NCBI RefSeq assembly: GCF_053078305.1
Contig: NZ_CP166879.1
DNA length: 64,000 nt
Direction: 5' to 3' (one strand)
This document shows, piece by piece, positions 7,498-56,213 of the stretch (the first letter of the stretch is position 1; each line of letters begins with the position of its first letter). Both the position numbers and the translations under genes were made by a program. The notes under the pieces are model-generated. The model searched no databases. It was given only the letters and a program-made list of their open reading frames with translations, and was not told the DNA's origin.

Positions 7498-7562
7498 GCA
7501 ATCAATGTCGGATGCGGCGCGAGCGCCTTATCCGACCAACATATCAGGACGGAATGATCGCA

Positions 7563-8174: not shown

Positions 8175-8276
8175 ATTATAAAAATTGCCTGATGCGCTTC
8201 GCTTATCAGGCCTACAAGTTCAGTGATCTACATTAGCCGCATCCGGCATGAACAAAGCGCAGGAACAAGCGTCGCA

Positions 8277-11633: not shown

Positions 11634-11765
11634 CCACTGACACAATTGCCTGATGCGCTACGCTTATCAGGCCTACGAGTTCAGTGCTCTACGTAGGCCG
11701 GATAAGGCGTTCACGCCGCATCCGGCATAAACTACGCTCGCTTTGTCAACACACTGCCCAGCCGA

Positions 11766-13049
11766 TCACCGTTTGTAATCGATGGCTTCTGGCTGCTCCA
11801 GATATACGGTGGTTTGTGCCGGTTGTGTGCTGGCAATCACCTTGCCGCCACGTACCGAATAACGTACCGGAACCTGACGGCGCAGCGCATCAAATCCATT
11901 TTCAGCCGGCAGGATAATCAGGTTGGCGCTGTTTCCGGCGGCAATGCCGTAATCCTGCAAATTCAACGTTCTGGCACTGTGGTGGGTGATTAAATTCAGG
12001 CCATCGTTAATCTGTCCGTAGCCCATCAGCTGGCAAACATGCAGCCCCATATGCAGCACTTGCAGCATATTCGCCGTTCCCAGCGGATACCACGGATCGA
12101 AGACATCATCGTGACCAAAGCAGACGTTAATGCCGGACTCCAGCATCTCTTTAACGCGCGTGATGCCGCGACGTTTTGGATACGTATCGAATCGTCCTTG
12201 CAGATGAATATTGACCAGCGGGTTGGCGACAAAGTTAATACCGGACATTTTCAGCAAGCGGAACAGGCGTGAGGTATACGCCCCGTTATAGGAGTGCATT
12301 GCCGTGGTGTGACTGGCGGTGACTCGCGCGCCCATGCCTTCACGGTGCGCCAGGGCAGCAACGGTTTCGACAAAGCGCGACTGCTCGTCATCGATCTCAT
12401 CACAGTGAACGTCGATGAGACGGTCGTATTTTTGCGCCAGGGCGAAGGTTTTATGCAGCGACTCCACGCCGTATTCACGGGTAAATTCAAAATGCGGAAT
12501 CGCCCCCACTACATCTGCCCCTAAGCGTAACGCCTCTTCCAGCAACGCTTCACCGTTGGGATACGACAAAATCCCTTCCTGAGGGAAGGCGACGATTTGC
12601 AGATCAATCCACGGCGCGACTTCCTGCTTCACTTCCAGCATTGCTTTCAGCGCAGTTAGCGTTGCATCCGAAACATCGACATGGGTACGCACATGCTGAA
12701 TGCCGTTGGCAATCTGCCATTTCAGCGTTTGCCATGCGCGTTGTTTCACATCGTCATGGGTTAATAACGCTTTGCGCTCGGCCCAGCGTTCAATGCCTTC
12801 AAACAGCGTGCCGGACTGATTCCAGTTCGGTTGTCCGGCGGTTTGCGTGGTGTCCAGGTGAATATGTGGCTCCACAAACGGCGGTATAACTAAACCTTGT
12901 TCGGCATCCAGGCTGTTTTCAGTTATGGGCATCACGCCGGATTGCGCATCAATGGCGCTGATTTTTCCGTCCTGCAGATGAATCTGCCACAGCCCCTCTT
13001 TGCCGGGTAACCGGGCGTTAATAATTGTTTGTAAAGCGTTATTCGACAC
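11766..13049 (-). CDS. codA: Cytosine deaminase
   Basis: (M)[15 protein letters not shown]...HIHLD...; GTG start at 13049 overlapping the codB 3' end. Confidence 0.95.
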
Positions 13050-14298
13050 TGTTAGCCTCCACATGCGTCATTGCTGCTGTCGTTTTACGATTCAAAATCG
13101 GGTTAAGGATCAGATAGCTCAGCGCGCCACCTAATACCGCGTTGACCGGAACAATTCCCGGTAACCAGTGGCCTGCAGCAATCCCCAAGGCGACCGCCAG
13201 AATCGCCACCCAATTGACACTCATCATACGCGTGGTCGCAAAGTGCTCATAGCGGCGACGGTTCATCAGATAGTCGGCAATGATCACGCCACCCACCGGA
13301 GGAATAGCTGCCGAAAGGAAGGTCAACCAGCCGACAAAATTGTTATACAGCCATAATGCGCAGACCGTACCGATAATACCGTTGATTACCGAAAGGGTTT
13401 TGCTCGACATACCGGTAATGTTGGCGAAACCTAAACCCGACGCATAGAGCGCGTTATCGTTGGTGGTCCAGATATTCAGTCCCAGCACCACAATCGCAGG
13501 CAGCAGCAGGCCCTGAGCAATCATCACATCAGAGATATCCGCCATGCCCAGTGCCGCAGCGCCCGCTGCACCGAAAATAAACATCAACGAGTTGCCGAGG
13601 AAAAAGGCCACCATCGCCACCAGTACCGCCAGTTTGGCATTGCGACCAAAGCGGACAAAGTCAGCGGTGAGCGTGCCCGCGCTGATAAATGACCCCACAA
13701 CCAGCGCCAGCGCGACATTGAAATCTAACGGTTGTGCGGGAACGACCGCTTTTAATGCGTCCAGGCCGCCCATGCCGTTAACAGCCAGCCACACGGAATA
13801 ACCGCCAAGGCAGGCGATAGCCGGAACCGCAATCACCGAAAGAACTGTCAGCGCCGAAATGCCAAAGAAGACGGTGACGGTCATCAGTAAACCGGAAACG
13901 GCAATCAGCAAATTAATATCCAGCCCGGTTGCCTTGCCCACCGGAATAGCAAACATCGCCACACCGACGCCAAACCAGCCAACCTGGGTGCCGCCCAGCA
14001 GCAGTGAAGGCAGCCATGAGCCTTTAACACCAAACGAGAAGCGAGCAAGAAGATGAGTGGTCAGGCCGGTTTTTGCGCCAATGTAACCGAGAAATGAAGT
14101 GTAAATACCGAGGAGAAGATTGCCGATGAGAACTGCGAGGAAGAAATCATGATAGCTAAGACCGGTTCCGAGAGTGCCGCCAGTCCACATACTGGCGGAA
14201 AAGAAGGTTAATCCCAGCATGACGAACGTCAATGCCAATACCCCTTTCCGCGCCGACTGCGGGACTGGCCCCTGGCTAAAGTTGTTATCTTGCGACAC
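13039..14298 (-). CDS. codB: Cytosine permease
   Basis: 419 aa membrane protein [33 protein letters not shown]...; upstream of codA in the same operon. Confidence 0.95.
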
Positions 14299-14451
14299 GA
14301 AATTCCCCCTTTTTGCTGTTTGAAACCCAAAAAATCCGCCGCATTCTATTCATCTGAAGATAAAAAGCAATCGTTTTCGTGGGGAAATATATTTTTTATA
14401 TGAATGAGTGCAAAAAGGTGGGGGAAAAATTATCGGTGTAAAAACAGTGGG

Positions 14452-14812
14452 TAGGCCTGATAAGACGCGTCAGCGTCGCATCAGGCAACTGCGCATGGTG
14501 TCGGATGCGGCGCGAGCGCCTTATCCGACCTACGGTTCAGGCCTGTAGGCATGATAAGACGCGTCAGCGTCGCATCAGGCATCTGCGCATGGTGTCGGAT
14601 GCGGCGCGAGCGCCTTATCCGACCTACGGTTCAGGCCTGTAGGCATGATAAGACGCGTCAGCGTCGCATCAGGCATCGGCACACGGTGTCGGATGCGGCG
14701 CGAGCGCCTTATCCGACCCACGGTTCAGGTCCGTAGGCATGATAAGACGCGCCTGCGTCGCATCAGGCATCGGCGCATGGTGCCGGATGCGCCACGCGAC
14801 GCATCCGACAAT
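14452..14812. repeat. Tandem REP/BIME cluster (about 4 units of ~90 bp)
   Basis: Repeated units of ggcctgataagacgcgtcagcgtcgcatcaggc...tgtcggatgcggcgcgagcgccttatccgacctacggttcag between codB and prpE. Confidence 0.9.
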
Positions 14813-14815
14813 ACC

Positions 14816-16702
14816 TTACTCTTCCATCGCCTGGCGGATCTGATCCAACGACGCAGGATCATCAATGGTCGTCAGATCCCCAGGATCGCGTCCTTCGCAA
14901 ATCGCCTGGATCGTGCGGCGCAGCATTTTTCCGGATCGGGTTTTTGGCAATTGCGAGACAAACCAGACGTGCGCCGGGCGGCCAAAGTTGCCAATCTGGC
15001 TGTCCACCAGCGCCATAATCGCCTTCTCTTGCGAATGCGCCACATCACGATCTTCCAGACTGTCGCTCTCTTTCGGAATGACAAACGCCACCGCCACCTG
15101 CCCTTTCAGCGCATCTTTCACCCCAACCACCGCCACTTCGGCAACGCCCGGATGACTGGAGATACTCTCTTCAATCTCGCGCGTCCCCAGCCGATGCCCG
15201 GCAACGTTAATTACATCGTCAGTGCGCCCGAGAATAAAGTGATAACCGTCAGCATCGCGGATGCCCCAGTCAAAGGTGGCGTATACCGGGCGGGAAAACA
15301 GCGACCAGTACGTCTTCACAAAGCGGTCGTCGTCACCCCAGATGGTCTGAATACACCCCGGCGGCAGCGGCCCTTCCACCACCAGCATCCCTTTCTCGTT
15401 GACGCCACACGGTTCGCCGGTGACTTCATTAAGCAACTGCACGTTATAGCCATACATCGGCACGCCGGGGCTTCCCAGACGCGTCGGCCTGTCGTCCAGA
15501 CCGCGAGCAATCGCCATAATCGGCCAGCCGGATTCGGTCTGCCAGTAGTTGTCGATGACCGGCACATCCAGCGTATTGCTCACCCAACTGGCGGTCGGCT
15601 CGTCCAGCGGTTCTCCAGCCAGATAGAGCACTTCCAGCGACGAGAGATCGTGTTTGCGAATTTCAGCGGTAGGGAATTTTTTCAGCACGCGAATGGCGGT
15701 CGGCGCTGAAAACATCCGGCTAACCTGATATTTCTCGACGATTTTCCACCACACGCCGCAGTCCGGCCAGGTCGGTAATCCTTCGTAAACGATAGTCGCC
15801 ATCCCCGCCAGCAGCGGCGCGTAGACGATATACGAATGCCCCACCACCCAGCCGATATCCGAAGCACAAAAGAACACACCGCCCGCTTTGCCGCCAAAAA
15901 TGGTGTCCATCGAGGTCGCCAGCGCCACCGCATATCCGCCGACGTCACGCTGCACGCCTTTAGGTTTGCCGGTCGTGCCGGAGGTGTAGAGAATGCAGGA
16001 GGTTTCGTTGGATTCCAGCCACGCCACCGGTACCCGCGCGCCGATGTGTTGATGGCGCAACGACGCGAAATCGACATCCCGCCCGCTAACGCGCGCCATT
16101 TTCGCCAGCCCACGATCTACCAGCAAAACATGGCGCGGCTGATGCTGCGCCTGACTTATCGCATCGTCGAGCAATTTTTTATAGGGAATGATTTTGCCAC
16201 CGCGCGCTCCGGCATCTGCCGAGACAATCAGCACCGGTTTAGCGTCATCAATTCGCGCCGCCACACTGTGCGAGGCGAATCCCCCAAACACCACCGAGTG
16301 AATAGCGCCAATGCGCGCGCAGGCCAGCAGGGTAATATGCGCTTCGGCAATCATCGGCATATACACCAGCACCCGATCGCCACGCTGCACGCCCAGTGAG
16401 CGCAGCATTGACGCCACCGCGTTCACTTCGTCATGCAGCTGGCGAAAGGTAAAGGTGCGCTCTTCTTCTGTTTCCGAAGAGACGGCAATCAATGCCAGCG
16501 CCTCTGGCTGTTTCTCCAGCCAGCGGTCGATAGCGTTGTGACACAAGTTGGTTCGGCCTTCACAAAACCAACGGGCAAACGGCGGATTGCTGTGATCGAG
16601 CGTTTGCGTAAAGGGCGTCTGCCAGTCAATACGCCGGGCCTGCTCGGCCCAGAACTGCTCCGGTTCGTTAATCGAACGCTGATAAAATTCGCTAAAAGAC
16701 AT
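14816..16702 (-). CDS. prpE: Propionyl-CoA synthetase
   Basis: 628 aa; MSFSEFYQRSINEPEQFWAEQARRIDWQ...; AMP-binding motif YTSGTTGKPKG. Confidence 0.97.
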   Translation of the reverse strand: MSFSEFYQRSINEPEQFWAEQARRIDWQTPFTQTLDHSNPPFARWFCEGRTNLCHNAIDRWLEKQPEALALIAVSSETEEERTFTFRQLHDEVNAVASMLRSLGVQRGDRVLVYMPMIAEAHITLLACARIGAIHSVVFGGFASHSVAARIDDAKPVLIVSADAGARGGKIIPYKKLLDDAISQAQHQPRHVLLVDRGLAKMARVSGRDVDFASLRHQHIGARVPVAWLESNETSCILYTSGTTGKPKGVQRDVGGYAVALATSMDTIFGGKAGGVFFCASDIGWVVGHSYIVYAPLLAGMATIVYEGLPTWPDCGVWWKIVEKYQVSRMFSAPTAIRVLKKFPTAEIRKHDLSSLEVLYLAGEPLDEPTASWVSNTLDVPVIDNYWQTESGWPIMAIARGLDDRPTRLGSPGVPMYGYNVQLLNEVTGEPCGVNEKGMLVVEGPLPPGCIQTIWGDDDRFVKTYWSLFSRPVYATFDWGIRDADGYHFILGRTDDVINVAGHRLGTREIEESISSHPGVAEVAVVGVKDALKGQVAVAFVIPKESDSLEDRDVAHSQEKAIMALVDSQIGNFGRPAHVWFVSQLPKTRSGKMLRRTIQAICEGRDPGDLTTIDDPASLDQIRQAMEE

Positions 16703-19436: not shown

Positions 19437-19533
19437 TTGTCGGATGCGACGCCATGCGTCTTATCCGACCTACAGTTCAGTACACCCCGTAGGCCTGATA
19501 AGTCGCGTCAGCGGCGCATCAGGCATCGGTTGT
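19437..19533. repeat. REP/BIME element between prpC and prpB
   Basis: gtcggatgcgacgccatgcgtcttatccgacctaca...taggcctgataagtcgcgtcagcggcgcatcaggc. Confidence 0.85.
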
Positions 19534-26334: not shown

Positions 26335-27321
26335 TTAAACCACCCGATCCAGCCCCAACATGCCGCGAGCCTGAATGAAACAAAGCAGCAACGTTCCCCA
26401 TAAGGCCATCGTCAGGTAGGGGCTTATACCGAGAATATTGAAGCCGCTTTCAATAATTTGCAGAAGAAACAGCGCCAACACCATACCAATTATCCGCCCG
26501 CTGCCGCCGTCCGGATTAACCCCGCCGAGTACTGCCGCGAGGATTGACACCAGCAAGTACGATTCGCCATAAGAGGCCTTAGCCGAGTTGAGTTTCGACA
26601 TCATCAAAAATGCCGCTACCGCACAAAGCAAGGCGGAAATGACATAAACCCAAATCAGCACCCGACGAGTGTTAATGCCGGAGTAAAGTGTTGCTCGTTC
26701 GTTAGACCCAATCAGGTAAATGGCTTTACCGAGCGGCGTTTTCTCCAGCAATACCCACAGCCCCAGTGCCACTGCGGCAAACAACCACATCGGTAGCGGA
26801 ATACCGAACCATTGCGCATGATTCAACCACAACACCCATGAGGGATAATTGGCAATGGCGCTACCGCCTGTCACCAGAATATTTATCCCTTTGAGCAACG
26901 TCATCATCCCAAGCGTTGCAAGAATTGGCGACACTCGAATACCAGCAATCAATACGCCGTTACATAAACCGATTATCACCGCCGCGCCAGCGCCCGCCAG
27001 TAACGTAGCGACAACCGTAGCAATACCCGGTGGATACTGAGTCGCCACCCACGCCATCACCAGTGAACAGGCGTTAGCAGTGGCTATAATTGACAAGTTA
27101 ATGCCACCGCAAAGCATGGTCACCGCCATAGCCAACGCCAGAATGCCCAGCACGGGCATTTGCGAAGCGACGGACTGGAAATTACTTATCGACCAGAAAA
27201 TCTCCGGCATAGTAATGCTGAACGCGGCAACAGTTAACACCAGCAGGCCGATCAAGTAAAACTCAACGTTATTACGCCACGATTTTTTCATAGCAGACTC
27301 CGGTTCTGATGCTGACTCCAC
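26335..27321 (-). CDS. Sugar ABC transporter permease (CUT2 family)
   Basis: 328 aa multi-pass membrane protein; overlaps the preceding permease gene; absent at this position in K-12. Confidence 0.85.
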   Translation of the reverse strand: MESASEPESAMKKSWRNNVEFYLIGLLVLTVAAFSITMPEIFWSISNFQSVASQMPVLGILALAMAVTMLCGGINLSIIATANACSLVMAWVATQYPPGIATVVATLLAGAGAAVIIGLCNGVLIAGIRVSPILATLGMMTLLKGINILVTGGSAIANYPSWVLWLNHAQWFGIPLPMWLFAAVALGLWVLLEKTPLGKAIYLIGSNERATLYSGINTRRVLIWVYVISALLCAVAAFLMMSKLNSAKASYGESYLLVSILAAVLGGVNPDGGSGRIIGMVLALFLLQIIESGFNILGISPYLTMALWGTLLLCFIQARGMLGLDRVV

Positions 27322-28259
27322 GCCGTGGCACTAATGCTGGCAACGATGATGATGCCGGTGATCAATGTTTGCCAGTAAGACGAGACTCCCAATAAATTTA
27401 GCCCGTTTTGCATCACTGCCAACAACACCACGCCGAGCAAAGTACCGGTTAACGTGCCGCGCCCGCCGAGCAAACTAGTGCCGCCAAGCACCACCGCAGC
27501 CAGTACTGTCAGCTCATAACCCAGAAGAGAATCGGGGGCGACAGTCATCACCGTCCACGACTGCACTACACCCGCAGCGCCAGACATCAATCCCATATAG
27601 CCATAGACGAAAAGTTGCAGTTTCAGCACGCTAAAGCCGATGCGACTGGCTGATTCGCGGTTCCCGCCAAGGGCATAAATTTTGCGCCCTACACTGGTGA
27701 AATTCATGATAAACGCTGTTAGCAGCACCACCGTAATCATGGCGATCAGCGGCAGACCAAGGCCATAGTCATAGCCATCAGCATCGGTGTACTTGAACAA
27801 CATAACCCCCAGCTCAAACCACGGCGGAAAGTCGTACAGCCACACACCTTTACTCAACCATAACAGCAGGCCATAGAAAATATTCAGCGTCGAGATAGTG
27901 ATGATGATAGAAGGCACCCGTAGGCGATTAACCAGTAAGGCGTTAATTAAGCCAAGTAAAATGCCGATGCAGCCTGCCAGTGCAAACGCGACAGCGAAGT
28001 TGCCACCAATTTTTTGCAGCAACAGCACCATGCCGTATTGCGCAATGATGGTCATTGCTGGAAACGAAATATCAATTCCACCGGAAATCAACACCACAAA
28101 CAAACCACAGGCGAGAATAGTCAACATGGCATAGTTATTGGCGAGATCGTACAAATTACCGAATGTCAGAAACTCGTCGCTGCGCCAGGCAAGGCCAACA
28201 AACAGCACCACAATCAGTAATGCCAGCCAGAATTCATGGCGTTTTTTCAGTTCAGCCAT
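27288..28259 (-). CDS. Sugar ABC transporter permease (CUT2 family)
   Basis: 323 aa multi-pass membrane protein; overlaps the ATPase stop. Confidence 0.85.
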   Translation of the reverse strand: MAELKKRHEFWLALLIVVLFVGLAWRSDEFLTFGNLYDLANNYAMLTILACGLFVVLISGGIDISFPAMTIIAQYGMVLLLQKIGGNFAVAFALAGCIGILLGLINALLVNRLRVPSIIITISTLNIFYGLLLWLSKGVWLYDFPPWFELGVMLFKYTDADGYDYGLGLPLIAMITVVLLTAFIMNFTSVGRKIYALGGNRESASRIGFSVLKLQLFVYGYMGLMSGAAGVVQSWTVMTVAPDSLLGYELTVLAAVVLGGTSLLGGRGTLTGTLLGVVLLAVMQNGLNLLGVSSYWQTLITGIIIVASISATAWSQHQNRSLL

Positions 28260-29736
28260 TTACCACCTCCGCAATCCTGGCCTGAGAACTGCTGTCAGGC
28301 AGGAAGCTATGGGTGATCTGACCTTTTTGCATTACCAAAATCCGGTGGCTTTGATACCACGCTTCTTCAATTTCATCGCAGATCATCAATACCGCAATGC
28401 CATGAGCCGCCAGATCGCTGATAATGCCGTATATTCCTGCTTTGTTGGCGATATCAACACCGACTGTCGGGCTATCGAGAATCAACAGTCGTGGCCCAAT
28501 CGCCAGCCATTTGGCGATCGATACTCGCTGCGCGTTACCACCAGAAAGCGTATTCACCGGGAGATGAGGATCAGAGACTTTGATGGTCAATGCCTTGATT
28601 AGCCTGTCCACCAGGTCACGCACTTTAGCTTCACTCAGAAAGCCGAAGCGATCTTTTACCTTGTGAAAAACAGTGCTAATGATGTTGTCTTCAATAGATT
28701 GCGCCATCACCAAACCGCGCGACATGCGATCTTCCGAAACATAACCAATACCGTGGCGGATGGCGTCCTGGTTACTATGCAGTGTAACCGGCTGGCCGTT
28801 GATGAGGATCTCGCCAGCATCCGGTCGGGTCATACCAAAGAGACTCAGACATAATTCCGTGCGCCCCGCACCAAGCAGGCCAACAATCGATACCACTTCG
28901 CCCGCTTCCACCCGCAAGTTAATATTTAGATATTCCCCATGACGACTTAAATTACGCACCTCCAGCACCGGGGTGCTGGATTTTCCCTGCCACAACTCTC
29001 GCACCTGATATTCAAACTCCTGGCCGGTCATCAGGAAACCGAGTTGTTTTGTGGTCATCTCTGCAGCCGGAAAAGTCCCGACCAGCTCACCATCTTTCAG
29101 CACTGAAATACGGTCGGAAACTTCCATCACTTCTTCCAGACGATGACTGACGAAGACCACGCAGATCCCGCGTTCACGCAATTGATGCACCACCTGTAAT
29201 AACCCTTGCACTTCCTGATGGGTCAGCGAAGCGGTTGGTTCATCCATCACGATCAACCGTGCGTCCTGCGCCAGTGCACGGCAAATAGCCACCAGCTGAC
29301 AGCGGGCAATTGAAAGCTCAGAAACGAGTGTATCCAGTGGCAATGTGACGTTAATACTGGTCATTGCCGCCTGCGCCACCTCACGCAGACGACGGCGGTT
29401 AACAAACAGACCGTGGTGATAGTGATTCACGGCGATATTCTCCCAGACACTCAGGTTAGGAAATAAAGAGAGGTCCTGATAAATCACCTGAATCCCCTGC
29501 GCCACCGAAGCGGCGGGTGTCAGCTTTGACCAGTTTTTCCCACCAAGCGTAATTTCCGCTCCCTCATCCGGGCGATAAACACCGGACATAATTTTAATCA
29601 ACGTCGATTTACCACAGCCGTTTTGCCCGGCAAGGCAGTGCACTTCACCCGACATAAAGTCGAGAGAAACATCGCGCAGCGCTCGCGTGGCATGAAACGT
29701 TTTGTTGATATGACGAAGGGAAAGGAAGGTTTCCAT
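28252..29736 (-). CDS. Sugar ABC transporter ATP-binding protein (two fused NBDs)
   Basis: Walker A GQNGCGKST and a second NBD (GLLGAGRTE); LSGGNAQR signature; start taken at ATG 29736 with AGGGGA upstream (track ORF starts at TTG 29751). Confidence 0.88.
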   Translation of the reverse strand: METFLSLRHINKTFHATRALRDVSLDFMSGEVHCLAGQNGCGKSTLIKIMSGVYRPDEGAEITLGGKNWSKLTPAASVAQGIQVIYQDLSLFPNLSVWENIAVNHYHHGLFVNRRRLREVAQAAMTSINVTLPLDTLVSELSIARCQLVAICRALAQDARLIVMDEPTASLTHQEVQGLLQVVHQLRERGICVVFVSHRLEEVMEVSDRISVLKDGELVGTFPAAEMTTKQLGFLMTGQEFEYQVRELWQGKSSTPVLEVRNLSRHGEYLNINLRVEAGEVVSIVGLLGAGRTELCLSLFGMTRPDAGEILINGQPVTLHSNQDAIRHGIGYVSEDRMSRGLVMAQSIEDNIISTVFHKVKDRFGFLSEAKVRDLVDRLIKALTIKVSDPHLPVNTLSGGNAQRVSIAKWLAIGPRLLILDSPTVGVDIANKAGIYGIISDLAAHGIAVLMICDEIEEAWYQSHRILVMQKGQITHSFLPDSSSQARIAEVVNG

Positions 29737-29784
29737 AACATCCCCTGGCAATAAGAATCGGGGCTTTCGCCCCGAAGAAATGGA

Positions 29785-30771
29785 TTAATAAAGTGAGTCG
29801 ATATTGTCTTTGTTGACCAGTAATACCTTATGGAAACGGATAATTCGCTTATCCATATCTACGTCGGCCTTACCCAGATTCTGCATTTCTAATCCAGGTT
29901 TGATCTCTTCACCCTTCAGCAACGTGCTGGCGACGGCTGCGAGTGCGTAACCTGCAGAGGCCGGATCGTAAGTAATCCCTTCGGTGATATCACCACTTTT
30001 AATCAGTGATGCCGCCTGTGAAGGGATCATCATGCCATAGACTGCGACTTTATTTTTCGCCCGTTTCTCTTTCACCGCACGTCCCGCGCCAATCGGACCG
30101 TTTGAACCAAAGGAGACAACCGCTTTCAAGTCAGGATAGGTTTTCATCAGGTCCAGTGTAGTACGACGTGAGTCATTCACACTCTCGGCAACCGGCATGC
30201 GGCGGGTAACTTCATGCATATCCGGGTAATGCTCTTTCTGGTATTTCACCAGCAAGTCAGCCCATAAGTTATGCTGCGGCACGGTCAAACTACCCACGTA
30301 AATCACATAGCCGCCCTTGCCACCCATGCGTTTCGCCATATGCTCAACATATTCAGCGGCAAATTTTTCGTTATCAATGATTTCGATATCCCAGTTAGCA
30401 CTTGGCTGACCGGGGGATTCGTTGGTCAGAACCACAATTCCGGCATCTCGCGCTTTTTTGAATACCGGTTCCAGCACGTTGGCATCGTTTGGCACGATAG
30501 TAATTGCATTAACCTTACGGGCGATTAAATCCTCAATAATTTTAACTTGTTGCGGAGCATCAGTACTTGAAGGCCCCACCTGTGAGGCATTAACACCAAA
30601 GGCTTTACCCGCCTCAACCACACCTTCGCCCATGCGATTAAACCACGGCATACCATCGACTTTAGAAATATTCACCACGACTTTTTCCGCTGCCTGGAGC
30701 GGCGCAGAAATTAGCGCAGCGCCTAATAACAGCGAAGACACCATATTGATAACAAAACGTTTATTCATCAT
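29785..30771 (-). CDS. Periplasmic sugar-binding protein (RbsB/YtfQ-like)
   Basis: 328 aa with signal peptide MMNKRFVINMVSSLLLGAALISAPLQA; periplasmic binding protein type I fold. Confidence 0.85.
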   Translation of the reverse strand: MMNKRFVINMVSSLLLGAALISAPLQAAEKVVVNISKVDGMPWFNRMGEGVVEAGKAFGVNASQVGPSSTDAPQQVKIIEDLIARKVNAITIVPNDANVLEPVFKKARDAGIVVLTNESPGQPSANWDIEIIDNEKFAAEYVEHMAKRMGGKGGYVIYVGSLTVPQHNLWADLLVKYQKEHYPDMHEVTRRMPVAESVNDSRRTTLDLMKTYPDLKAVVSFGSNGPIGAGRAVKEKRAKNKVAVYGMMIPSQAASLIKSGDITEGITYDPASAGYALAAVASTLLKGEEIKPGLEMQNLGKADVDMDKRIIRFHKVLLVNKDNIDSLY

Positions 30772-31021
30772 TTCAGCCTCATTGCAGGGTAGTCAGGAAG
30801 TGTTCGCCCAAATTAGCGCGCTGGAGAGAATGAGAATTTTCGAATATTTTTATGCAGAATAAACAGCTCTATTTCAGGCAGCTATTAAAAATATGGTTAT
30901 AAATATGGACAAAACGGGCAGCAATAATAAGTGTGACATTCATCACGTAAAAAATAGCAAAATAAACAAAATTAGCGATATTTTATGTTTGTGAGCTTAT
31001 TTCGTGTAGATAAATAGTTAT

Positions 31022-31432
31022 CTACACAACGTCAATAAGGGCATATTCTTCAAAGATAACGTCCATTTCTGGTGAATAGCTTCCTTCTGCCTGGAAAAAA
31101 CGACGGTGTTCATTACGCCAATATTCAAGACTGAGGTCACCTTCACCTTCCTTACGGGCAAGCTCCGCGGTGACATCAGAAAAGCGCAGTAAATGCAGGC
31201 CAATCACTCTGATAACACATACAGGCTCACCACGGCTATTTTCTACAATCTTATACTCACCAATCATCGGAAATGCGTTGTCTTCAATACATCCCGCCAG
31301 CGAACCACAGGAAGCTGTTTTAACACCAGTCGCAATCAACGTTGCGAGGTGATCGGCCAACGCGGCTGAATCGCCAAAAGTACAAAAGGAAGCATGGGGA
31401 TATTTTTGTGAGAATTTTTCTTTTATGGTCAT
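31022..31432 (-). CDS. ASCH-domain (PUA-like) protein
   Basis: MTIKEKFSQKYPHASFCTFGDSAALADHLATLIATGVKTASCGS... resembles ASCH/YqfB-type domains; start uncertain (ATG 31432 or TTG 31462). Confidence 0.6.
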   Translation of the reverse strand: MTIKEKFSQKYPHASFCTFGDSAALADHLATLIATGVKTASCGSLAGCIEDNAFPMIGEYKIVENSRGEPVCVIRVIGLHLLRFSDVTAELARKEGEGDLSLEYWRNEHRRFFQAEGSYSPEMDVIFEEYALIDVV

Positions 31433-31730
31433 GGCAATATTTTTGCGATTACGGAAAAACAAATCACATCTTAATTACTGTTGGTAACCATCAGCAAGAG
31501 TATCATTGGTTTTTCGATACTGAATCTTTTTTATCCGAAGCAGGTCACATTTATGGCCTGATAAATACCTTTGTTAAAACTCACTTTTGTGTATTTCTCT
31601 CAAATAATCCCCTGGAAATTATGCCGGGAGATTATAAAGTTCAGGATCATTCATTAGCAAACCATTCCCGCCCCACTCCCTGGGGCTTAAATCTCTTACT
31701 ATTCACCGTTGCAGGCGTTTCAAATGCGCA

Positions 31731-33122: not shown

Positions 33123-34073
33123 TTACGTTTTAATAATATGGGTGCCCGTTTCGCCACGCAGCGCCGCGGGCAGGCATTCCGGCGTGGTGATAATCACTTC
33201 TTTACCGCCCTGTTCCAGGAACGTCAGGCTGGCGATGATTTTTGGCAACATGCTGCCGGGCGGGAAATGTCCTTCCTGCATATAGCGAGTCATGGTGGCA
33301 ATATCCACCCGATCGAGCGCCTGCTGCTCGGGTTTGCCAAAATGAATACACACTTTTTCCACGCCGGTGGTGATCACCAGAATGTCGGCGTGAATTTCAC
33401 GGGCCAGCAGCGCGGTAGAGAGATCTTTGTCGATAACCGCGTCCACGCTTTGGTAATCTCCCGCGTCAGTACGCACCACAGGAATTCCGCCGCCGCCCGC
33501 GCCAATCACCACAAAGCCTTGTTGGATCAGCGCCTTAATGGCAGGTGCTTCGACAATACGTTTCGGTTCCGGCGAGGCGACCACGCGGCGATAGCCCCGT
33601 CCGGCATCTTCAACAAAACGCCAGTCAGGGTTTGCCTTTTGTAGTTCGTCACGCTGGCTGTCACTAAAGAATGCGCCGATGGGCTTGGTGGGATGGGCAA
33701 ATCCCGGATCGTTTTTATCCACTTCCACCTGAGTCACCACGGTGACGGCTTTTTTCTCGCCGTGACGCGCCAGTCGGTTGTTCAGCGCCTGTTGGATCAG
33801 ATAGCCAATGCCGCCTTGCGTATCCGCTACACAGTTCGCCAGCGGCGTTAATGGCAGCCCTTCGCGCTCGTGGGCAATCTCCGCACGGCGTAAATCCAGC
33901 CCGACCTGCGGCCCGTTGCCGTGGGTCAGCACAATGTCGTAATCGGAAGCCAGCATTTCCAGCACCGTATCGGCGACGGCTTTCACCGCCTCCGCCTGAT
34001 GCTCAATCGACTGGCTGGCATTATCTTTGATAATGCTGTTGCCACCAATGGCAACGACCACAAGCTCTTTCAT
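33123..34073 (-). CDS. yahI: Carbamate kinase-like protein
   Basis: 316 aa; MKELVVVAIGGNSI... amino acid kinase fold; GGGIPV motif. Confidence 0.92.
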   Translation of the reverse strand: MKELVVVAIGGNSIIKDNASQSIEHQAEAVKAVADTVLEMLASDYDIVLTHGNGPQVGLDLRRAEIAHEREGLPLTPLANCVADTQGGIGYLIQQALNNRLARHGEKKAVTVVTQVEVDKNDPGFAHPTKPIGAFFSDSQRDELQKANPDWRFVEDAGRGYRRVVASPEPKRIVEAPAIKALIQQGFVVIGAGGGGIPVVRTDAGDYQSVDAVIDKDLSTALLAREIHADILVITTGVEKVCIHFGKPEQQALDRVDIATMTRYMQEGHFPPGSMLPKIIASLTFLEQGGKEVIITTPECLPAALRGETGTHIIKT

Positions 34074-34111
34074 GTTGTTATGTCCGCTACAGAGGGTGAT
34101 GAGGTTATGAC

Positions 34112-34486
34112 CAACGCCAGACTGCCTGATGCGCTACGCTTATCAGGCCTACAATTCTCGCGCCACTCGTAGGCCGGATAAGGCGTCCACGCCGCATCCG
34201 GCAATGGTGACAAATGCCTGATGCGCTACGCTTATCAGGCCTACAAATTCTCGTGCCATTCGTGGGCCGGATAAGGCGTTCACGCCGCATCCGGCAATGG
34301 TGACAAATGCCTGATGCGCTACGCTTATCAGGCCTACAGATTCTTGCGCCATTCGTAGGCCGGATAAGGCATTCACGCCGCATCCGGCAATGGTGACAAA
34401 TGCCTGATGCGCTACGCTTATCAGGCCTACAAATTCTTGCGCCACTTGTAGGCCGGATAAGGCGTTCACGCCGCATCCGGCATGAA
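34112..34486. repeat. Tandem REP/BIME cluster (about 4 units)
   Basis: Repeated gcctgatgcgctacgcttatcaggcctaca...gtaggccggataaggcgttcacgccgcatccggca between yahI and yahG. Confidence 0.9.
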
Positions 34487-34494
34487 CATGTAGG

Positions 34495-35913
34495 TCAGAC
34501 GCCGTAACGTTCGCACCAGCCGAGAATGGCTTTCTCGAAGCAGGCGAATGGTGGATGCACAATGCCCGCGCCAATCATGCCGACGCCCGCATCTTTATGG
34601 GCGATGGCGGTGTTGATCACTGGCAGAATGCCGCTGCTACCCACGCGGGTGATGTCGATTGCCGACGGCACGCCCATAAAACCGAGCAGCGGAATGGTGA
34701 CGTTGGGGTTTTCGCCAAGGGTGATTTCACGCATCTGGCGGGAGAAATCGATAGCCTCTTCCACCGAGCCACCCACCAGCGCGACGATTGCAGGTGCGGT
34801 CGCCATGGCAAACCCGCCAATACCGTAGGTTTCTGTGATGGCGCTGTCGCCGATATCCAGCCCCGAATCTTCCGGCTTATAACCAGCAAACATCGGGCCG
34901 ATCACCTGCTGCGCTGGGCCGGTAAACCAATGCCCCGGCAGGCCGCTGACCCGCAGGCCGAACTCGACGCCGTTACGCGCCATGGTGGTAACGACGGTGC
35001 TGTATTCGATGCCGTGCGCCGCATCCATCGCCGCTTTACACATCGCCATCCACGTCGGGCCGGAGAAGTAGTCGCTGCTGGCGACAAACTCAAACACTTC
35101 GCGCTGTTGCTCGACGGAGTAGCCCGCCTGAATAATCCCCGGCGTCAGCGCCTGAATCAGCAGCGTCGTCCCGGCGTTATTGCGGTTATGGCACTCATCG
35201 CCCATATGCAGCGCCTGCGCCAGCATTAAGCGCAGATCGATCTCGCCGATAATTTTCATCGCGTCGCGCAGTATTGGTCCCTGCACATCACGCATCCAGT
35301 TCAGGCGGTCAATCACGCTCTGGTCGTTAGCGCCCATACGCAAAATCTTCGCCATCTGCTCGCTCATGTTGGTATAAGCGATGTTGCCGTAGGTTTTGTT
35401 TTTTACGATGTGCATAAACATCGAGGCCGAGGTAACACCCGCCATCGATCCCACGCAGTCGTGCTCGTGACACGGCGAGAAGGTGATCTCCCCGGAAGCC
35501 GCCAGTTCAGCCGCCTCGTCGAGATCTTTCGCCAGTCCTTCGAACACCAGCGCTCCGGTGACCGCGCCTTTCATCGCGCCGCACATTTTTTCCCAGGTGA
35601 TCGGCGGCCCGGCGTGAAGAATGGTTTTCGGCGTCATGCCCGGCACCACGTTAATCGCCTGATCAAAACCAATTAGCACCGGATGCGACTGGATAATGCG
35701 TTCCAGCGCCTGCTGGTTAGCGGCGGCGATTTTGTCTGCCAGCGGCGAATCGGCAATGTTATCCAGCGCCTGCACCACCTGCATATTGCCCTGCCCCGGC
35801 GGCGTCCAGTCGAGTTGAGTCACTTCTACATGCTGCTTTTTCAGGTCATCGCTAAACATGGCGATGCCGACGTTAATAACGTTCAATGGTTGGCTAAACA
35901 GTGACTGGCTCAT
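34495..35913 (-). CDS. yahG: DUF1116-family protein (YlbE paralogue)
   Basis: 472 aa; size and position match yahG. Confidence 0.88.
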   Translation of the reverse strand: MSQSLFSQPLNVINVGIAMFSDDLKKQHVEVTQLDWTPPGQGNMQVVQALDNIADSPLADKIAAANQQALERIIQSHPVLIGFDQAINVVPGMTPKTILHAGPPITWEKMCGAMKGAVTGALVFEGLAKDLDEAAELAASGEITFSPCHEHDCVGSMAGVTSASMFMHIVKNKTYGNIAYTNMSEQMAKILRMGANDQSVIDRLNWMRDVQGPILRDAMKIIGEIDLRLMLAQALHMGDECHNRNNAGTTLLIQALTPGIIQAGYSVEQQREVFEFVASSDYFSGPTWMAMCKAAMDAAHGIEYSTVVTTMARNGVEFGLRVSGLPGHWFTGPAQQVIGPMFAGYKPEDSGLDIGDSAITETYGIGGFAMATAPAIVALVGGSVEEAIDFSRQMREITLGENPNVTIPLLGFMGVPSAIDITRVGSSGILPVINTAIAHKDAGVGMIGAGIVHPPFACFEKAILGWCERYGV

Positions 35914-41876: not shown

Positions 41877-41954
41877 CTTGATTAAATCTTGTGCGCCAGC
41901 TAAATCTGCGAGTCTTCACTCTGACGGATAAAGCTGGCTGCAAGAAAATGACAC

Positions 41955-41986
41955 AGAGAGCCGAATTATCTCCCGTTCGGCTCTCT
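41955..41986 (-). terminator. Stem-loop downstream of the autotransporter gene
   Basis: Perfect 11-bp inverted repeat agagagccgaa / ttcggctctct with 10-nt loop, directly after the ehaA-type stop; flanking runs are only moderately T-rich. Confidence 0.5.
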
Positions 41987-42008
41987 ATCCTTTTACTCAT
42001 TATTCAGA

Positions 42009-45000
42009 TCAGAATTGCCACTTAATGCCAACCATTGCAGAGGTGTCATTATATCCCCTATCGGCAACCTGAACGCCCACATTCCCCCAGACATTCAGGT
42101 TGGCATTTAGCTGTCCTTCCACCCCGGTTTTTATCTCAGCAATATTTCGGGCTCCATCCTGAGTGACGGACACGCCATCCATACTGGTGCTGAAATCCTT
42201 ACTGTTATGCAGCCAGTTCACTTCTACAAACGGCTGGAACTCGCGGGATTTACCGTCATCCATTTTATGGTGGCTCTTCAGCCAGTTTTTTACGCCAAGT
42301 CGGGTTTGAACATTGCCATCACCGTTGCTATGAACGAGGGTTCCGTTGCTTTCGCGGTGCTTATCAGCTTTGACTCCCATCCAGGTAACCTGTGCTTGCG
42401 GCTGAACATACCATTCATTACGCGTTCCCTGGCTGCCATTAAATTCAGCTAATTTGTGTTTGTATCCAGCTTCCAGTGAAGCGGTAAGTCCTTTTGATTT
42501 ATAGGATTCACTTTGTAAGTCATCCCCTTTCACTGTGTTATCAAACCAGCTGTACTGCGCCCAACTGTCGAGATACGCGCCATTACGCGACTCGTCATCG
42601 GCATACCAGGTGGCATAGAGGCCTGTGCTATATCCGTTCACACTCGCTTTTGCACGATAACCGGTTCGCGAGGAAATGGTTTTGCTGTCGCTGTTGCCAT
42701 ATCCCGCCATGACCCCAACATGCCAGCTGTCGCTGCCGTTTTGGCTCCACTGCGCGACATCGCCTCCCAGTTGCAGAACATAGCGATTGCTTTGGGTTTT
42801 CAGCTGGCCGCTGCCATCACGCCATTTATTATGACCACCTTCATGGCGCATCCACATAGTGGTTTGTTTCTGCTCACCCGTCACCATGTCGGTATAGTAC
42901 GTATTACCCAGACGCTCATGCAGACGCGTGGTGAACATGGTATTCGCTGCTGCAAGGTTCGCAATGTAGCTACCCGCCTCCGGTCGCAGGTCATTATCCA
43001 CATTCAGATCCGGACCCGGCGTAGGTGTCGGGTTAGGGTTCGGCTCTGGATTCGGGTTTGGCTCCGGATTCGGCATCGGGTCTGGCTCCGGCTGCAGTTC
43101 AGGAGAATCACTGCCGCTGGTCAGATACCAGTTACCACTATTTGCCCCTTGTCCACGCGCGAGAGTGTAGTCATACGCCCCCGCAACGATACGCCCAGCC
43201 TGAACAAATTCGCCCTCAGACTTACCGTCTACATGGATAAGTTCGATACCGTTAAGGGTTTTCGCACCTGTACCGCCAGCGTTATTCACCGTAACGGCAG
43301 TCGTGCCGCTGGTATCGCCCTCGACAACCAATTTATCGGTTACTGAGTCATCGCCATTCAGTACCGTATTCATTACTAGTTGACCGTTATTACCGTGGTA
43401 GTTCCCCTTCACCACTAACACATTGCCAGCTTGCTGTCCTGACATTCCGGTCATCAGCGTACCGTTGTTGGTCAGATTGCCGCCCAGGGTGTAATTCACA
43501 GACGCAGCCGCTCTTTTTTCAGCGCTATTATTCAACGCCAGGGTACCGTTGTTCTCAACGTTTGCGCTACCCAATCCCTGCGCATGACTTACCAGGACAT
43601 TAGCCGAATTAGCAATGTTCACATTCGCCGTCAGGTTGCTGTTATCGCCCGCGATGTCCAGCGTGCCGCCCTGAATATTCAGCTCTCCGCTCCCCGTTAA
43701 CGAACCGGTTGAAGTGCCCCCGTTGGTAACCGTCAGACTGCCGCCATTTAAGCTCAGCAGTGAATCGGCGCTGCCATTGAGCGTGCCCACGGTCTGGCTG
43801 TGACCATTCATATCCAGTTCAGTCTCTGCCGCCAGACGCAGTTCATGGGTATTACCCAACACGTTATCGTTATTCAACAAAAGCGTCCCACTGCGCAGAT
43901 CGGTAACACCGGTATAGTCGTTGTCTTTGTTAGAAAGCGATACGGTCTGACCCTTCTGGCTGCTGAATGCCAGGTCACCACTGCCGGTAATCTTTGCGCT
44001 GAGATCGGCGGCATTCTCGCTTTTACCGTTAGAGCTCAGCACCAGAGCATCGCTGTCGGTAGCGTGTAAATCAAGCTGGGTCAGGCCGTAACCGATATAC
44101 AGACCGTCATTGTTTACCCCACTCGTCAGACGATAGTCGTAAGTGCCGACGGCCGCTTTTTGCCCATTCTGCTGAATATCACGTTGGGCGCTGCTGGAGA
44201 GGATTTGCCCATTTTTATCCTGCAATTGCAGATTGCCCGCATCGCCCAGAACTTCCGCACCTTGCGCATCAACCAACTTAATGGTGCTGTTACCATCATC
44301 GACTTCAGTGAGCGATAACGCAGAGTCAATATCACGAGATACTGAGCTTACAACGTCACTGTCAGAAACCTGAATCACACCCTCGCCGCGCAAATCCAGC
44401 GTTTTACTAACGTTGACCGTCCCTTCTGTCATCTGTGCACCTGCTGTCAGGGCACCAAAATCAACGGTTCCGCCGGAGAATCCCAAAGTGCTAATAGAAT
44501 GAGCGCCCTTACCCACTGTTACCTGGCTTCCCTGACCCGCAGTGATCCCGCCTCTCTGCAGAAACTCAGCATTCTTTTCCAGGTTAAATGCCGTGTTCTG
44601 GAACGCCAGTGAACCCTGGAACCAGTCTGTATAAGCAAACTCATCGAAGGAGAATTCGTGATTCCCCATGTTTATTTCAACAATGCCTCTACCTTCAAGA
44701 TCGTTATCAAATACCCAATCTTTGTTGGCATTAATTTGCAATTTGCCATCAACATCCAGCTCTGCACGACCGATATTCTTGTCTTCAGAAATAACAGCGA
44801 CAGCACCAGAAGCAACATCAATATATCCGCTGAATGCATAGTTATTGCCGGTCAACTCCACCGTCCCACTGTCGATACTTATTGTACCGTTGCCAGAGAT
44901 CTTATTGGCAAAGGTCATGCTATCGTCAGCCTTCAGGTGTAATTTCCCGCGGTTGGTGATCTCTGCTGTACCTATATTTTGGGTGATCCCTAAAGCGCCA

Positions 45001-45992
45001 TTTTGCTCAATTTTGACTTTACCACTAAAGGCAGAGTTATCCCCGGTTAAGTAAGTCGTGCCATTGAGCGCATTGATATAGCCTAGGCCCTCGCTGCCAC
45101 TGACAATATCCGCGGAAATAGTCGCGTCTTTATCCGTGTGGTTTAAGGTGATTTTCTTATCGGATGTCGAAGCCCACACAAACTCAATTTTTTCGGCATC
45201 AATAATCCCTGCCGCCTTCGCAGCACTTCCTTCCTGTGCACCTAACGCTAACTCAGAGTTGGTGCTTAAACTAATTTTCGGTGCGGATATTTTACCTCCA
45301 TCTGATACGACTAATGTTGTATCAGAACGTTGGTCGTAATAACCCAGGCTAATATGTTCACGAGCATTAACTTCACCACCGTTATTAACCGACAGGAACT
45401 GATTACCGCCATATCCGCCGTAAACGCCCATAAAGAAGGTCCCGGCATTTACCTGACTACCTTCGCCGCTTACATTCCCCTGCGTATAAGTCAGACGACT
45501 GGTGCCCTTAACATGAATTTTGCCGCCGTTGGAGACATTAAAATAGCCTTGATCATGTCTCATGCCTGAGTTTGACTCATACAAATCATCAGCATATAAC
45601 TCGCTGCCAGCATTGGAGACATTCAGGAAGCCCGTACCTTTCAGCAAAAAGTTAAGTGGGCCATTGATTGTTACCTTTCCTCCGGTAATATCCAACCCAC
45701 CACCAGACGCGAGAGTCAGACGCGGACGGGAAGTATCTGTCGCATTGATTACCAGATTGGCATTGTCTGTCACCGTAATACGGTAATCGATGCTCTGGTT
45801 CTCTTTGCCAAAATCAATAGTTTTATCCTGGTTTACGATGACATCATCGGCGAATACCAGAGATGAATATAAACTTATCGCGCTAATTAAAACAGCCCGG
45901 GACTTTTTTCCTTTTACTCTGCTCCCCAGCTCCGAGCAGACGCTCCAACAGTTACGGGACCTGTTCCACTTTAGCCGATATATTTTATTCAT
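42009..45992 (-). CDS. ehaA: AIDA-I-type autotransporter adhesin (EhaA-like)
   Basis: 1327 aa from ATG 45992; extended signal peptide MNKIYRLKWNRSRNCWSVCSELGSRV; Gly/Asn/Thr-rich passenger; proline-rich linker PEPDPMPNPEPNPNPEPNPNPTPTPGP; C-terminal beta-barrel ending ...GIKWQF. No gene lies between pdeL and betT in K-12. Confidence 0.8.
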   Translation of the reverse strand: MNKIYRLKWNRSRNCWSVCSELGSRVKGKKSRAVLISAISLYSSLVFADDVIVNQDKTIDFGKENQSIDYRITVTDNANLVINATDTSRPRLTLASGGGLDITGGKVTINGPLNFLLKGTGFLNVSNAGSELYADDLYESNSGMRHDQGYFNVSNGGKIHVKGTSRLTYTQGNVSGEGSQVNAGTFFMGVYGGYGGNQFLSVNNGGEVNAREHISLGYYDQRSDTTLVVSDGGKISAPKISLSTNSELALGAQEGSAAKAAGIIDAEKIEFVWASTSDKKITLNHTDKDATISADIVSGSEGLGYINALNGTTYLTGDNSAFSGKVKIEQNGALGITQNIGTAEITNRGKLHLKADDSMTFANKISGNGTISIDSGTVELTGNNYAFSGYIDVASGAVAVISEDKNIGRAELDVDGKLQINANKDWVFDNDLEGRGIVEINMGNHEFSFDEFAYTDWFQGSLAFQNTAFNLEKNAEFLQRGGITAGQGSQVTVGKGAHSISTLGFSGGTVDFGALTAGAQMTEGTVNVSKTLDLRGEGVIQVSDSDVVSSVSRDIDSALSLTEVDDGNSTIKLVDAQGAEVLGDAGNLQLQDKNGQILSSSAQRDIQQNGQKAAVGTYDYRLTSGVNNDGLYIGYGLTQLDLHATDSDALVLSSNGKSENAADLSAKITGSGDLAFSSQKGQTVSLSNKDNDYTGVTDLRSGTLLLNNDNVLGNTHELRLAAETELDMNGHSQTVGTLNGSADSLLSLNGGSLTVTNGGTSTGSLTGSGELNIQGGTLDIAGDNSNLTANVNIANSANVLVSHAQGLGSANVENNGTLALNNSAEKRAAASVNYTLGGNLTNNGTLMTGMSGQQAGNVLVVKGNYHGNNGQLVMNTVLNGDDSVTDKLVVEGDTSGTTAVTVNNAGGTGAKTLNGIELIHVDGKSEGEFVQAGRIVAGAYDYTLARGQGANSGNWYLTSGSDSPELQPEPDPMPNPEPNPNPEPNPNPTPTPGPDLNVDNDLRPEAGSYIANLAAANTMFTTRLHERLGNTYYTDMVTGEQKQTTMWMRHEGGHNKWRDGSGQLKTQSNRYVLQLGGDVAQWSQNGSDSWHVGVMAGYGNSDSKTISSRTGYRAKASVNGYSTGLYATWYADDESRNGAYLDSWAQYSWFDNTVKGDDLQSESYKSKGLTASLEAGYKHKLAEFNGSQGTRNEWYVQPQAQVTWMGVKADKHRESNGTLVHSNGDGNVQTRLGVKNWLKSHHKMDDGKSREFQPFVEVNWLHNSKDFSTSMDGVSVTQDGARNIAEIKTGVEGQLNANLNVWGNVGVQVADRGYNDTSAMVGIKWQF

Positions 45993-46523
45993 CACAATCT
46001 CCAGCAATACATCCAAATAAAACCAAGATTGCATAAACAGCAACGCATTAAATGCCATTCCGGTTACTGTTCATCGCATATAAAAATTCAAAAATTTTGC
46101 ATAGCATTGGCAACCACATATCTGAGTATGTAGTTCAGAGGGTAATAAAATAGCAAGTTACTACTGAAAACTTATTTTAAGTTAACACTCTTAACTTTAT
46201 CATTACATTCCCCCCCAGTCTCTAATACCTGCGCATTATATGTATCCGGGAACTCAAATCAACTCAAAATATAAACAAAAGCAGGAGAAATACATTTAAT
46301 ATACAGCCGGTAAAAGTGGTAACTCTTATTAGGTATACAAATATAAGAATCGTCTTATTAATAAATATATAACTCTATAGGACTGAATCCATTCAGCTAA
46401 TACAAAATAAAATCGTTAATTAATAAAATATAAAATCATGAAGTGATACAAGAGGAATTTCAGGATATGACATGACAATCATATATAATATATGCATAAT
46501 TTTTTACAGCGAGTCAATGATTC

Positions 46524-46556
46524 CCGCGCCATATGCAAACATGGCGCGGTTTTATG
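46524..46556 (+). terminator. Rho-independent terminator-like hairpin next to the betT 3' end
   Basis: ccgcgccat-atgcaaac-atggcgcgg (9-bp GC-rich stem) followed by ttttatg. Confidence 0.55.
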
Positions 46557-54133: not shown

Positions 54134-54145
54134 AACAGTACCTTC

Positions 54146-54423
54146 TGATTCAAAATGTCAGATTCCTACGTTTTCCTCAATTCTTCCATAAAAAAACAGC
54201 CCATTCAATTAAATAAAACACATAACATGTTGATATTTCTCGCTAAAGTAAAATAACCCCATGATTTGAAATGATTAACCACCAAGGTCATACCAGTGAT
54301 TAACTTTCGCTCATATTGTTAAATAACACAAAATTAAAAACAATAAAAATCAAACAAATTAGATTTATATTCCAAGAAAATTAAATATTCAGGCTATTAA
54401 ACCAAACCTGACATTTTGAATCA
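54146..54423. promoter_or_regulatory. Candidate invertible DNA switch (fimS-like) bounded by 16-bp perfect inverted repeats
   Basis: TGATTCAAAATGTCAG at 54146-54161 and its exact reverse complement CTGACATTTTGAATCA at 54408-54423, flanking 246 bp of AT-rich DNA between the recombinase and the LuxR-type regulator. Confidence 0.65.
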
Positions 54424-54462
54424 AAATGTCAGGTTTTGTAGCAATGGCGTGGACGAGTCTGA

Positions 54463-56172: not shown

Positions 56173-56213
56173 GTGGGAAATTGAAATTAGTTACCAGAAT
56201 GGAGAATTTCTTC

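Follow-up and report, generated by a model that had tools for sequence, protein, structure and literature searches.

BIMEs are non-coding arrays of REP hairpins that alternate in orientation, and their published definitions turn on which REP types are paired, how many copies stand in tandem and what kind of linker lies between them. In a BIME-1, one Z1 REP is paired with one Y REP over a long L linker that contains an IHF site, a BIME-2 is a series of tandem Z2/Y pairs with short linkers, and atypical BIMEs are multi-copy hybrids between BIME-1 and BIME-2 (PMC3333891; PMC1187871). The RAYT protein (TnpA-REP) binds REPs via the GTAG motif and a mismatch in the stem and cleaves at CT, and in vitro it recombines BIMEs (PMC3333891). 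DNA gyrase has a higher affinity for BIME-2 than for BIME-1 (PMC1475751), and the insertion sequence IS621 has as its natural target ATCAGGCCTAC, which makes up the tail in Z1 as well as Z2 REPs (PMC11208160).

Effects of a BIME on its neighbours have been measured for REP325, a six-unit BIME-2 between yjdM and yjdN, which stabilises the upstream message (bioRxiv 10.64898/2026.03.23.713779). The same study found a partly Rho-dependent attenuation of transcription into the downstream gene together with a ladder of hairpin-ended transcripts, no measurable role of REP325 in nucleoid compaction, and REP effects that were context-dependent, in that mRNA half-life was not uniformly lengthened (bioRxiv 10.64898/2026.03.23.713779). 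In addition, where a REP is at most 15 nt away from a stop codon, the gene upstream is reported to be translated less (cited in PMC12306157).

Here we compare two tandem arrays with these systems. Both lie in a stretch of 64,000 nt, hereafter the window (RefSeq assembly GCF_053078305.1, contig NZ_CP166879.1), which is part of an E. coli chromosome and collinear with K-12 MG1655 at ~320-367.6 kb, in reverse orientation and with 96.8-98.4% identity. Tandem Repeats Finder (TRF) placed array 1 at 14451-14791 (period 94, 3.6 copies, 94% matches, score 598) and array 2 at 34123-34482 (period 93, 3.9 copies, 94% matches, score 643). Elsewhere in the window the highest score was 66, and the best scores in 20 dinucleotide-preserving shuffles of the window were 33-54, so that both arrays stand far above chance. 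The coordinates given in a first-pass annotation of this DNA (14452-14812 and 34112-34486) agree with the TRF calls to within a few bases, and its unit size of ~90 bp and unit number of 3-4 were likewise right. As it had also claimed, the arrays are confined to intergenic gaps, array 1 to codB-prpE (14299-14815), where it takes up most of the 517 bp, and array 2 to yahI-yahG (34074-34494), a 421-bp gap within a series of same-strand genes. A terminator scan found no intrinsic terminator in either gap, and the RefSeq feature table of NC_000913.3 lists no REP features for the equivalent stretch of K-12. Our full account of the two arrays, to which we assign a probability of roughly 85%, is that they are BIMEs whose number of units varies between strains in the manner of a VNTR, that they serve as landing sites for IS621, and that they have roles, which we infer, at the level of mRNA and of gyrase.

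Some segments of the window are absent from K-12. A 5.2-kb segment between yahJ and yahK (26406-31670) encodes a sugar or AI-2-like ABC transporter (binding protein, two permeases and an ATPase) and an ASCH-domain gene, and was present in 2,226 of 5,426 genomes. The autotransporter adhesin gene ehaA lies in a 4.6-kb segment between pdeL and betT (41882-46526; 1,408/5,426 genomes). A 6-kb island adjoining ykgH (52592-58585) carries hyxB, hyxR, hyxA and the tyrosine invertase ipbA (fimX type); it was found in 1,930 of 5,426 genomes with a best match of 97.9% identity, which marks the window's copy as divergent. At the left end of the window, positions 1-1842 had no match to K-12 sequence beyond lacI, on the mhpR side.

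REPs were parsed by iterative local alignment to three consensus sequences for E. coli REPs, consistent with those given in PMC11208160. The arrays resolved into 15 REPs of 29-36 nt, each forming a hairpin with unpaired stem positions as is typical of REP/PU palindromes, and 13 of the 15 carry an intact GTAG/CTAC foot, the exceptions being the Y REP at 34262-34295 (GTGG) and the Y variant, here referred to as Y*, at 14688-14721 (CCAC). Every unit of both arrays is made up of two inverted REP hairpins, and the internal palindromes noted at first reading are therefore real. Folded singly as DNA, the REPs gave energies of -6.8 to -11.3 kcal/mol, which 0-2 of 200 shuffles could match; the weakest fold was that of a Z1 variant with the tail ATCATGCCTAC. 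In the window's 10 Y-type REPs, 99% of cells were paired in the expected hairpin, including two compensatory pairs, against 34-42% in a control in which the 3' partners were shifted by 1-3 columns. For the transcribed (minus) strand, RNA folds of the whole arrays gave z-scores of -9.1 and -6.1. When full units of the same array are compared, 87-92 of 93-94 bases agree in array 1 and 88 of 92-93 in array 2. Between arrays the best alignment matched 65 of 75 aligned bases, with gaps and in opposite orientation, and the REP types differ (Z1 in array 1 vs. Z2 in array 2). The earlier description of the units as near-identical thus holds within each array but not from one array to the other. Both arrays fit published definitions, in support of their first identification as BIMEs. 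A CRISPR-like array was considered and rejected, given that the supposed spacers are conserved linkers of 11-17 nt and the repeats alternate in orientation. An assembly artefact was also rejected, as these loci and their series of lengths were found again in thousands of complete genomes.

Array 2 (34124-34481) is a canonical BIME-2 of four Z2/Y pairs, with the structure [Z2(+), 16-17 nt, Y(-), 13 nt] repeated four times by TRF and REP parsing, giving eight REPs. The Z2 REPs, on the plus strand, are located at 34124-34152 (29/29 consensus matches), 34216-34244, 34309-34337 and 34402-34430; the Y REPs, on the minus strand, at 34169-34202, 34262-34295 (GTAG mutated to GTGG), 34355-34388 and 34448-34481. 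All four Z2 and two of the four Y REPs match their consensus perfectly, one of these being the Y at 34448-34481, and the remaining two Y REPs have one mismatch each. The strict alternation of Z2(+) and Y(-), the 3.9 tandem copies and the strain-variable copy number are those of a BIME-2. Its linkers, at 16-17 nt between tails and 13 nt between heads, are short, as in a BIME-2. The array is preceded in the direction of transcription by yahG (34495-35913, minus strand; DUF1116/YlbE family), whose stop codon TGA is at 34495-34497, and the first REP on the mRNA (34448-34481) begins 13 nt past this stop. It is followed by yahI (33123-34073, minus strand; carbamate kinase-like), whose start codon lies 50 nt past the last REP.

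The array is also overlain by an open reading frame on the minus strand (34149-34469) equivalent to K-12 yahH (b0322). That a genuine YahH protein is made from array 2, in line with the annotation of K-12 and many other RefSeq genomes, seems to us extremely improbable. Apart from this annotation, what speaks for the gene is a frame open through the whole array, a property that follows from the 93-bp period, equal to 31 codons. However, the translation is merely a 31-residue repeat, it belongs to no Pfam or NCBIfam family at cut-off and gave sub-threshold chance matches only, and a second overlapping frame is just as open. The reading frame also shrinks or vanishes with unit number and is lost in the ~60% of sampled strains that have two REPs or fewer. 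The yahH ORF (b0322 and its RefSeq homologues) is probably an annotation artefact.

A different kind of product was suggested by Rfam, which returned seven matches to RF02564 (naRNA4) at 61-78 bits against a gathering threshold of 59.5; array 2 contained three of them and array 1 four. Following the original claim for such RNAs (PMC4550694), the units could be genes for naRNA4-type nucleoid-associated small RNAs that condense the chromosome with HU. However, a single Y/Z2 pair of REP325 was the source of the Rfam model, which any REP pair would match; both strands scored above threshold at 14454-14530, and the matches in array 2 are antisense to yahG-yahI. Furthermore, a 2026 study whose authors include the original group reported no role in compaction and ~1-2 RNA copies per cell (bioRxiv 10.64898/2026.03.23.713779). 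We therefore regard this interpretation as very unlikely, and treat the matches as a property of the REP pairs of a BIME.

Array 1 (14451-14809) is an atypical BIME in which Z1 REPs alternate with a Y variant over short linkers and which ends in a truncated palindrome. TRF and REP parsing gave the structure [Z1(-), 13 nt, Y*(+), 11 nt] repeated three times, followed by a fourth Z1(-), 13 nt and the terminal palindrome. The first Z1, on the minus strand at 14451-14486, has one mismatch to the consensus. The other three, at 14545-14580, 14639-14674 and 14733-14768 (the last with the loop GCGCCTGCG), are minus-strand variants with the tail ATCATGCCTAC, which introduces an extra stem mismatch, and the hairpin at 14545-14580 folds at -6.8 kcal/mol compared with -11.3 for a perfect Z1. 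The Y* REPs, on the plus strand, have the form GTCGGATG...ATCCGAC and differ from Y at two stem positions that compensate each other (C>T/G>A). The copies at 14500-14533 (DNA hairpin of -9.7 kcal/mol) and 14594-14627 are identical, and in that at 14688-14721 the tail CTAC is mutated to CCAC. The terminal 28-nt palindrome, GCCGGATGCG-CCACGCGA-CGCATCCGAC (14782-14809; hairpin of -11 kcal/mol), corresponds to two inverted Y-type heads lacking the GTAG tail and was present in all alleles examined. Outside the array, the Y* subtype also occurs as a solitary REP at 7507-7540 in the lac region, where a solitary Z2 with one mismatch is located at 8187-8215, with a perfect IS621 target at 8205.

In composition, Z1 with a Y variant, array 1 resembles a BIME-1. 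Unlike the single-copy BIME-1, however, it has 3.6 tandem units (seven REPs plus the terminal palindrome), and in place of a long L linker it has linkers of 11 and 13 nt without an IHF consensus. A search for the IHF consensus WATCAANNNNTTR was negative on both strands of the codB-prpE gap, and an IHF site was found in neither gap. Its multiple copies, its 11-13 nt linkers and the missing IHF consensus place array 1 among the atypical BIMEs rather than in BIME-1. Its Z1 and Y REPs over short linkers, amplified in tandem and ranging between strains from 1 to 15 REPs, fit that class.

Array 1 stands at the 3' end of the prp operon and ahead of the codBA promoter. The gene upstream of it by transcription is prpE (propionyl-CoA synthetase; 14816-16702, minus strand), with the stop codon TAA at 14816-14818, and on the prpE mRNA the terminal palindrome begins 6 nt past this stop. 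Downstream of it is codB (cytosine permease; 13039-14298, minus strand), which starts at 14298, and between array and gene a sigma-70 promoter-like site was recognized on the minus strand by consensus match only (14386-14414; 9/12 matches). After the last Z1 hairpin the prpE mRNA continues with CCACTGTTTTT (14440-14450, minus strand), whose T run starts ~10 nt past the stem, too distant for the terminator scan to call; this T run might aid termination ahead of the codB promoter.

Unit number was compared across strains with 60 records per locus, evenly spaced down a ranking of ~5,300 matching records (~5,400 complete genomes). Locus length was read from spans and representative alleles were checked by REP parsing. 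At both loci the length alleles step by one unit. The codB-prpE gap measured 236, 329, 424, 517, 609, 705 or 893 bp, and parsing gave 1, 3, 5, 7, 9 and 15 REPs, with ~11 for the 705-bp allele by length. The fractions are rough, as the collection is clonally biased and counts for unfetched rows were inferred from span lengths in ~93/94-bp steps: three REPs (329 bp, the K-12 type) were found in 29/60 records, one REP (236 bp) in 16/60 (~27%), five REPs (424 bp) in 6/60 and seven REPs (517 bp, the window's length) in 1/60, while seven records were longer or unjoined and one lacked the locus. Long alleles verified among strains were 609 bp with nine REPs (strain 042), 705 bp with ~11 REPs by length, and 893 bp with 15 REPs (O157). 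Only two records had at least 99% identity to the window over the codB-prpE locus, and the window's allele of array 1 is therefore uncommon.

At yahI-yahG, parsing gave 0, 2, 6, 8 or 10 REPs and span length gave 4. The eight REPs of the window and K-12 were found in 16/60 records, six REPs in 3/60 (BL21 and Stbl4 parsed), four REPs in 2/60 (by length only), two REPs in 24/60, a larger array in 4/60 (O157:H7, with 10 REPs), and no REPs in 7/60 (~12%), where a REP-free gap of 94 bp contains a different small hairpin. The locus was absent from 3/60 records, and one further record matched through a plasmid paralogue. A yahG/yahI-like paralogous cluster (DUF1116 and carbamate kinase genes) was seen on the 194-kb plasmid NZ_CP160126.1 at 93913-97750, 85.8% identical to the window. 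In a REP-free allele from strain SCU-102 (positions 1125-1218 of the fetched sequence, equal to window 34074-34494), ~55 bp of unrelated sequence takes the place of the BIME and contains the palindrome CCCCTCTCCCC-AGAA-GGGAGAAGGG, a different small hairpin at the same site.

Each array is thus a VNTR-like locus where strains differ by the gain and loss of entire 93/94-bp units. That copy number often differs between strains had been predicted in the first-pass annotation, and the comparison of unit counts with other E. coli genomes that it proposed as a check bears this out: array 1 ranges from 1 to 15 REPs and array 2 from 0 to 10, and the arrays are not identical in all strains. One such change was seen in Stbl4, a strain of the K-12 lineage that is identical to MG1655 over 2,608 bp save for one exact 93-bp unit; 15 flanking positions differ between Stbl4 and BL21. 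The K-12 lineage has therefore undergone a change of one unit with no accompanying point substitution, unless, as is possible in principle, the difference is a repeat collapsed in the assembly. Turnover is not always fast, since the 15-REP allele of array 1 was identical in three O157 strains. With ~12% of records REP-free at yahG-yahI and ~27% having a single REP after prpE, a large array is evidently dispensable. The two loci could be used as typing markers, and possibly offer a natural allelic series relating REP number to the expression of neighbouring genes.

Variation in REP number was also observed elsewhere in the window. A third BIME locus, in the cynR-codA gap, has one Z2/Y pair (11648-11726), compared with two pairs and a 336-bp gap in K-12. 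The prpB-prpC gap (160 bp) contains a single Z1 REP at 19489-19524, and in K-12 four Z1 REPs in the same orientation within 439 bp. The K-12 prpB-prpC gap is an unusual direct Z1 array and a further polymorphic REP locus.

The tails of Z-type REPs are a natural landing site for IS621, an IS110-family element with a bridge-RNA recombinase. The 11-nt target ATCAGGCCTAC, with its CT core, is present in four copies in array 2, one per Z2 REP (34142-34152, 34234-34244, 34327-34337 and 34420-34430), and in a single copy in array 1 (14451-14461, minus strand), only in the first Z1 (14451-14486); the ATCATGCCTAC tails of the other three of the four Z1 do not match it. In contrast to other strains, the window has no IS621 in either array. 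An annotated IS621 was found inside array 1 in 4 of 60 records and inside array 2 in 1 of 60. The suggestion that such arrays are hotspots for IS insertion therefore agrees with what occurs in these arrays in other strains (IS621, 5/120 sampled records). Four insertions were examined, and all were at the CT core of a perfect ATCAGGCCTAC: two in the first Z1 of array 1 (L002 and L019), one in the second Z1 of array 1 (L020) and one in a Z2 of array 2 (L005). The long alleles of array 1 that were examined (9-15 REPs) contained no perfect IS621 target, most simply because the amplified unit shares common descent, being the ATCATGCCTAC variant. Z1 units derived from this variant could render large arrays refractory to IS621.

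The functional roles of both arrays are likely to be those described for other BIMEs, an assessment that draws on the literature and, for array 2, on its sharing composition and intercistronic position with REP325. That such arrays can modulate mRNA stability, as the first-pass annotation suggested, draws on the same literature. Changes in unit number would most likely arise when direct repeats undergo unequal homologous exchange or slip during replication, and/or when RAYT (TnpA-REP) acts on them. In RNA, with array 1 at the 3' end of the prpE message and array 2 in the spacer from yahG to yahI, the stacks of hairpins would stop 3' exonucleases and thereby shield the message upstream of them. 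Part of the read-through into codB or yahI would likewise end there, as measured for REP325. At both loci the distance from the stop codon to the first hairpin falls inside the 15-nt range (6 nt for prpE and 13 nt for yahG), so that translation of prpE and yahG may be damped. At the DNA level, the BIME-2 array is a candidate site of gyrase binding and cleavage.

This last property raises the question of whether the arrays act mainly in topology, as strong gyrase sites relieving supercoiling between transcription units, rather than as regulators at the RNA level. The literature reports that BIME-2 binds gyrase more strongly than BIME-1 and is cleaved in vivo, and array 2 is a canonical BIME-2. 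But array 1 is no BIME-2, and local transcript effects dominate in the REP325 study, so a mainly topological role appears unlikely.

The strain comparison also bears on whether the arrays have any host function at all. They may be selfish or commensal repeats kept by RAYT, with unit number drifting by recombination, a possibility we take seriously even if we give it well under even odds. Their presence and size vary widely in healthy strains, including REP-free and single-REP alleles; the units show mosaic variation, and RAYT cleaves and recombines BIMEs in vitro. On the other hand, compensatory changes preserve the hairpin, both arrays begin no more than 15 nt from a stop codon, the REP-free yahI-yahG allele has a different hairpin at the same place, and REP325 shows measured local effects on expression. 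Drift of this kind is plausible, and is compatible with our account of the arrays as unit-variable BIMEs with probable mRNA and gyrase roles, not exclusive of it.

A bolder extension of the same account is that unit number serves as a fast-mutating heritable dial, the range of 1-15 REPs giving graded expression of the propionate, cytosine and carbamate pathways. If so, each added hairpin pair would give the prpE or yahG mRNA more protection and would further cut read-through into codBA or yahI. We consider such a dial doubtful. The value of the present analysis lies in a better annotation of the region, with one BIME-2, one atypical BIME and yahH flagged, and in recording both loci as VNTRs and IS621 landing pads over thousands of E. 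coli genomes; it matters little beyond that.

Compared with known systems, array 2 is closest to BIME-2 elements such as REP325 between yjdM and yjdN, with which it shares Z2 and Y REPs that alternate in inverted orientation, short linkers, units in tandem whose number varies by strain, and an intercistronic position. That REP325 has six pairs as against four is not a substantive difference, and the BIME of K-12 yahG-yahI is equal to array 2 in architecture and length. Array 1 is closest to the atypical BIMEs, joining the Z1 and Y composition of a BIME-1 to the short linkers and tandem amplification of a BIME-2, and the K-12 codB-prpE locus has the same array with fewer units. Its peculiarities among atypical BIMEs are the Y subtype GTCGGATG...ATCCGAC, the stem mismatch in three of its four Z1 REPs and the 28-nt head-to-head palindrome without GTAG. 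The likeness of array 1 to BIME-1 itself (the RIP/RIB, IHF-binding element) is confined to its Z1 and Y REPs, since BIME-1 is a single copy with a long conserved L linker and IHF site, whereas array 1 is multi-copy with linkers of 11-13 nt and no IHF consensus. More distantly, both arrays resemble the REPIN/RAYT systems of Pseudomonas, in which REP doublets are associated with a domesticated transposase: an inverted REP pair is the unit, and the GTAG and stem mismatch that RAYT needs are present. They differ in that the RAYT gene (yafM in K-12) is outside the window and that the pairs stand in tandem at one locus instead of being dispersed. All of these features fit long-published knowledge of REPs and BIMEs, and as a type the two arrays are already known.
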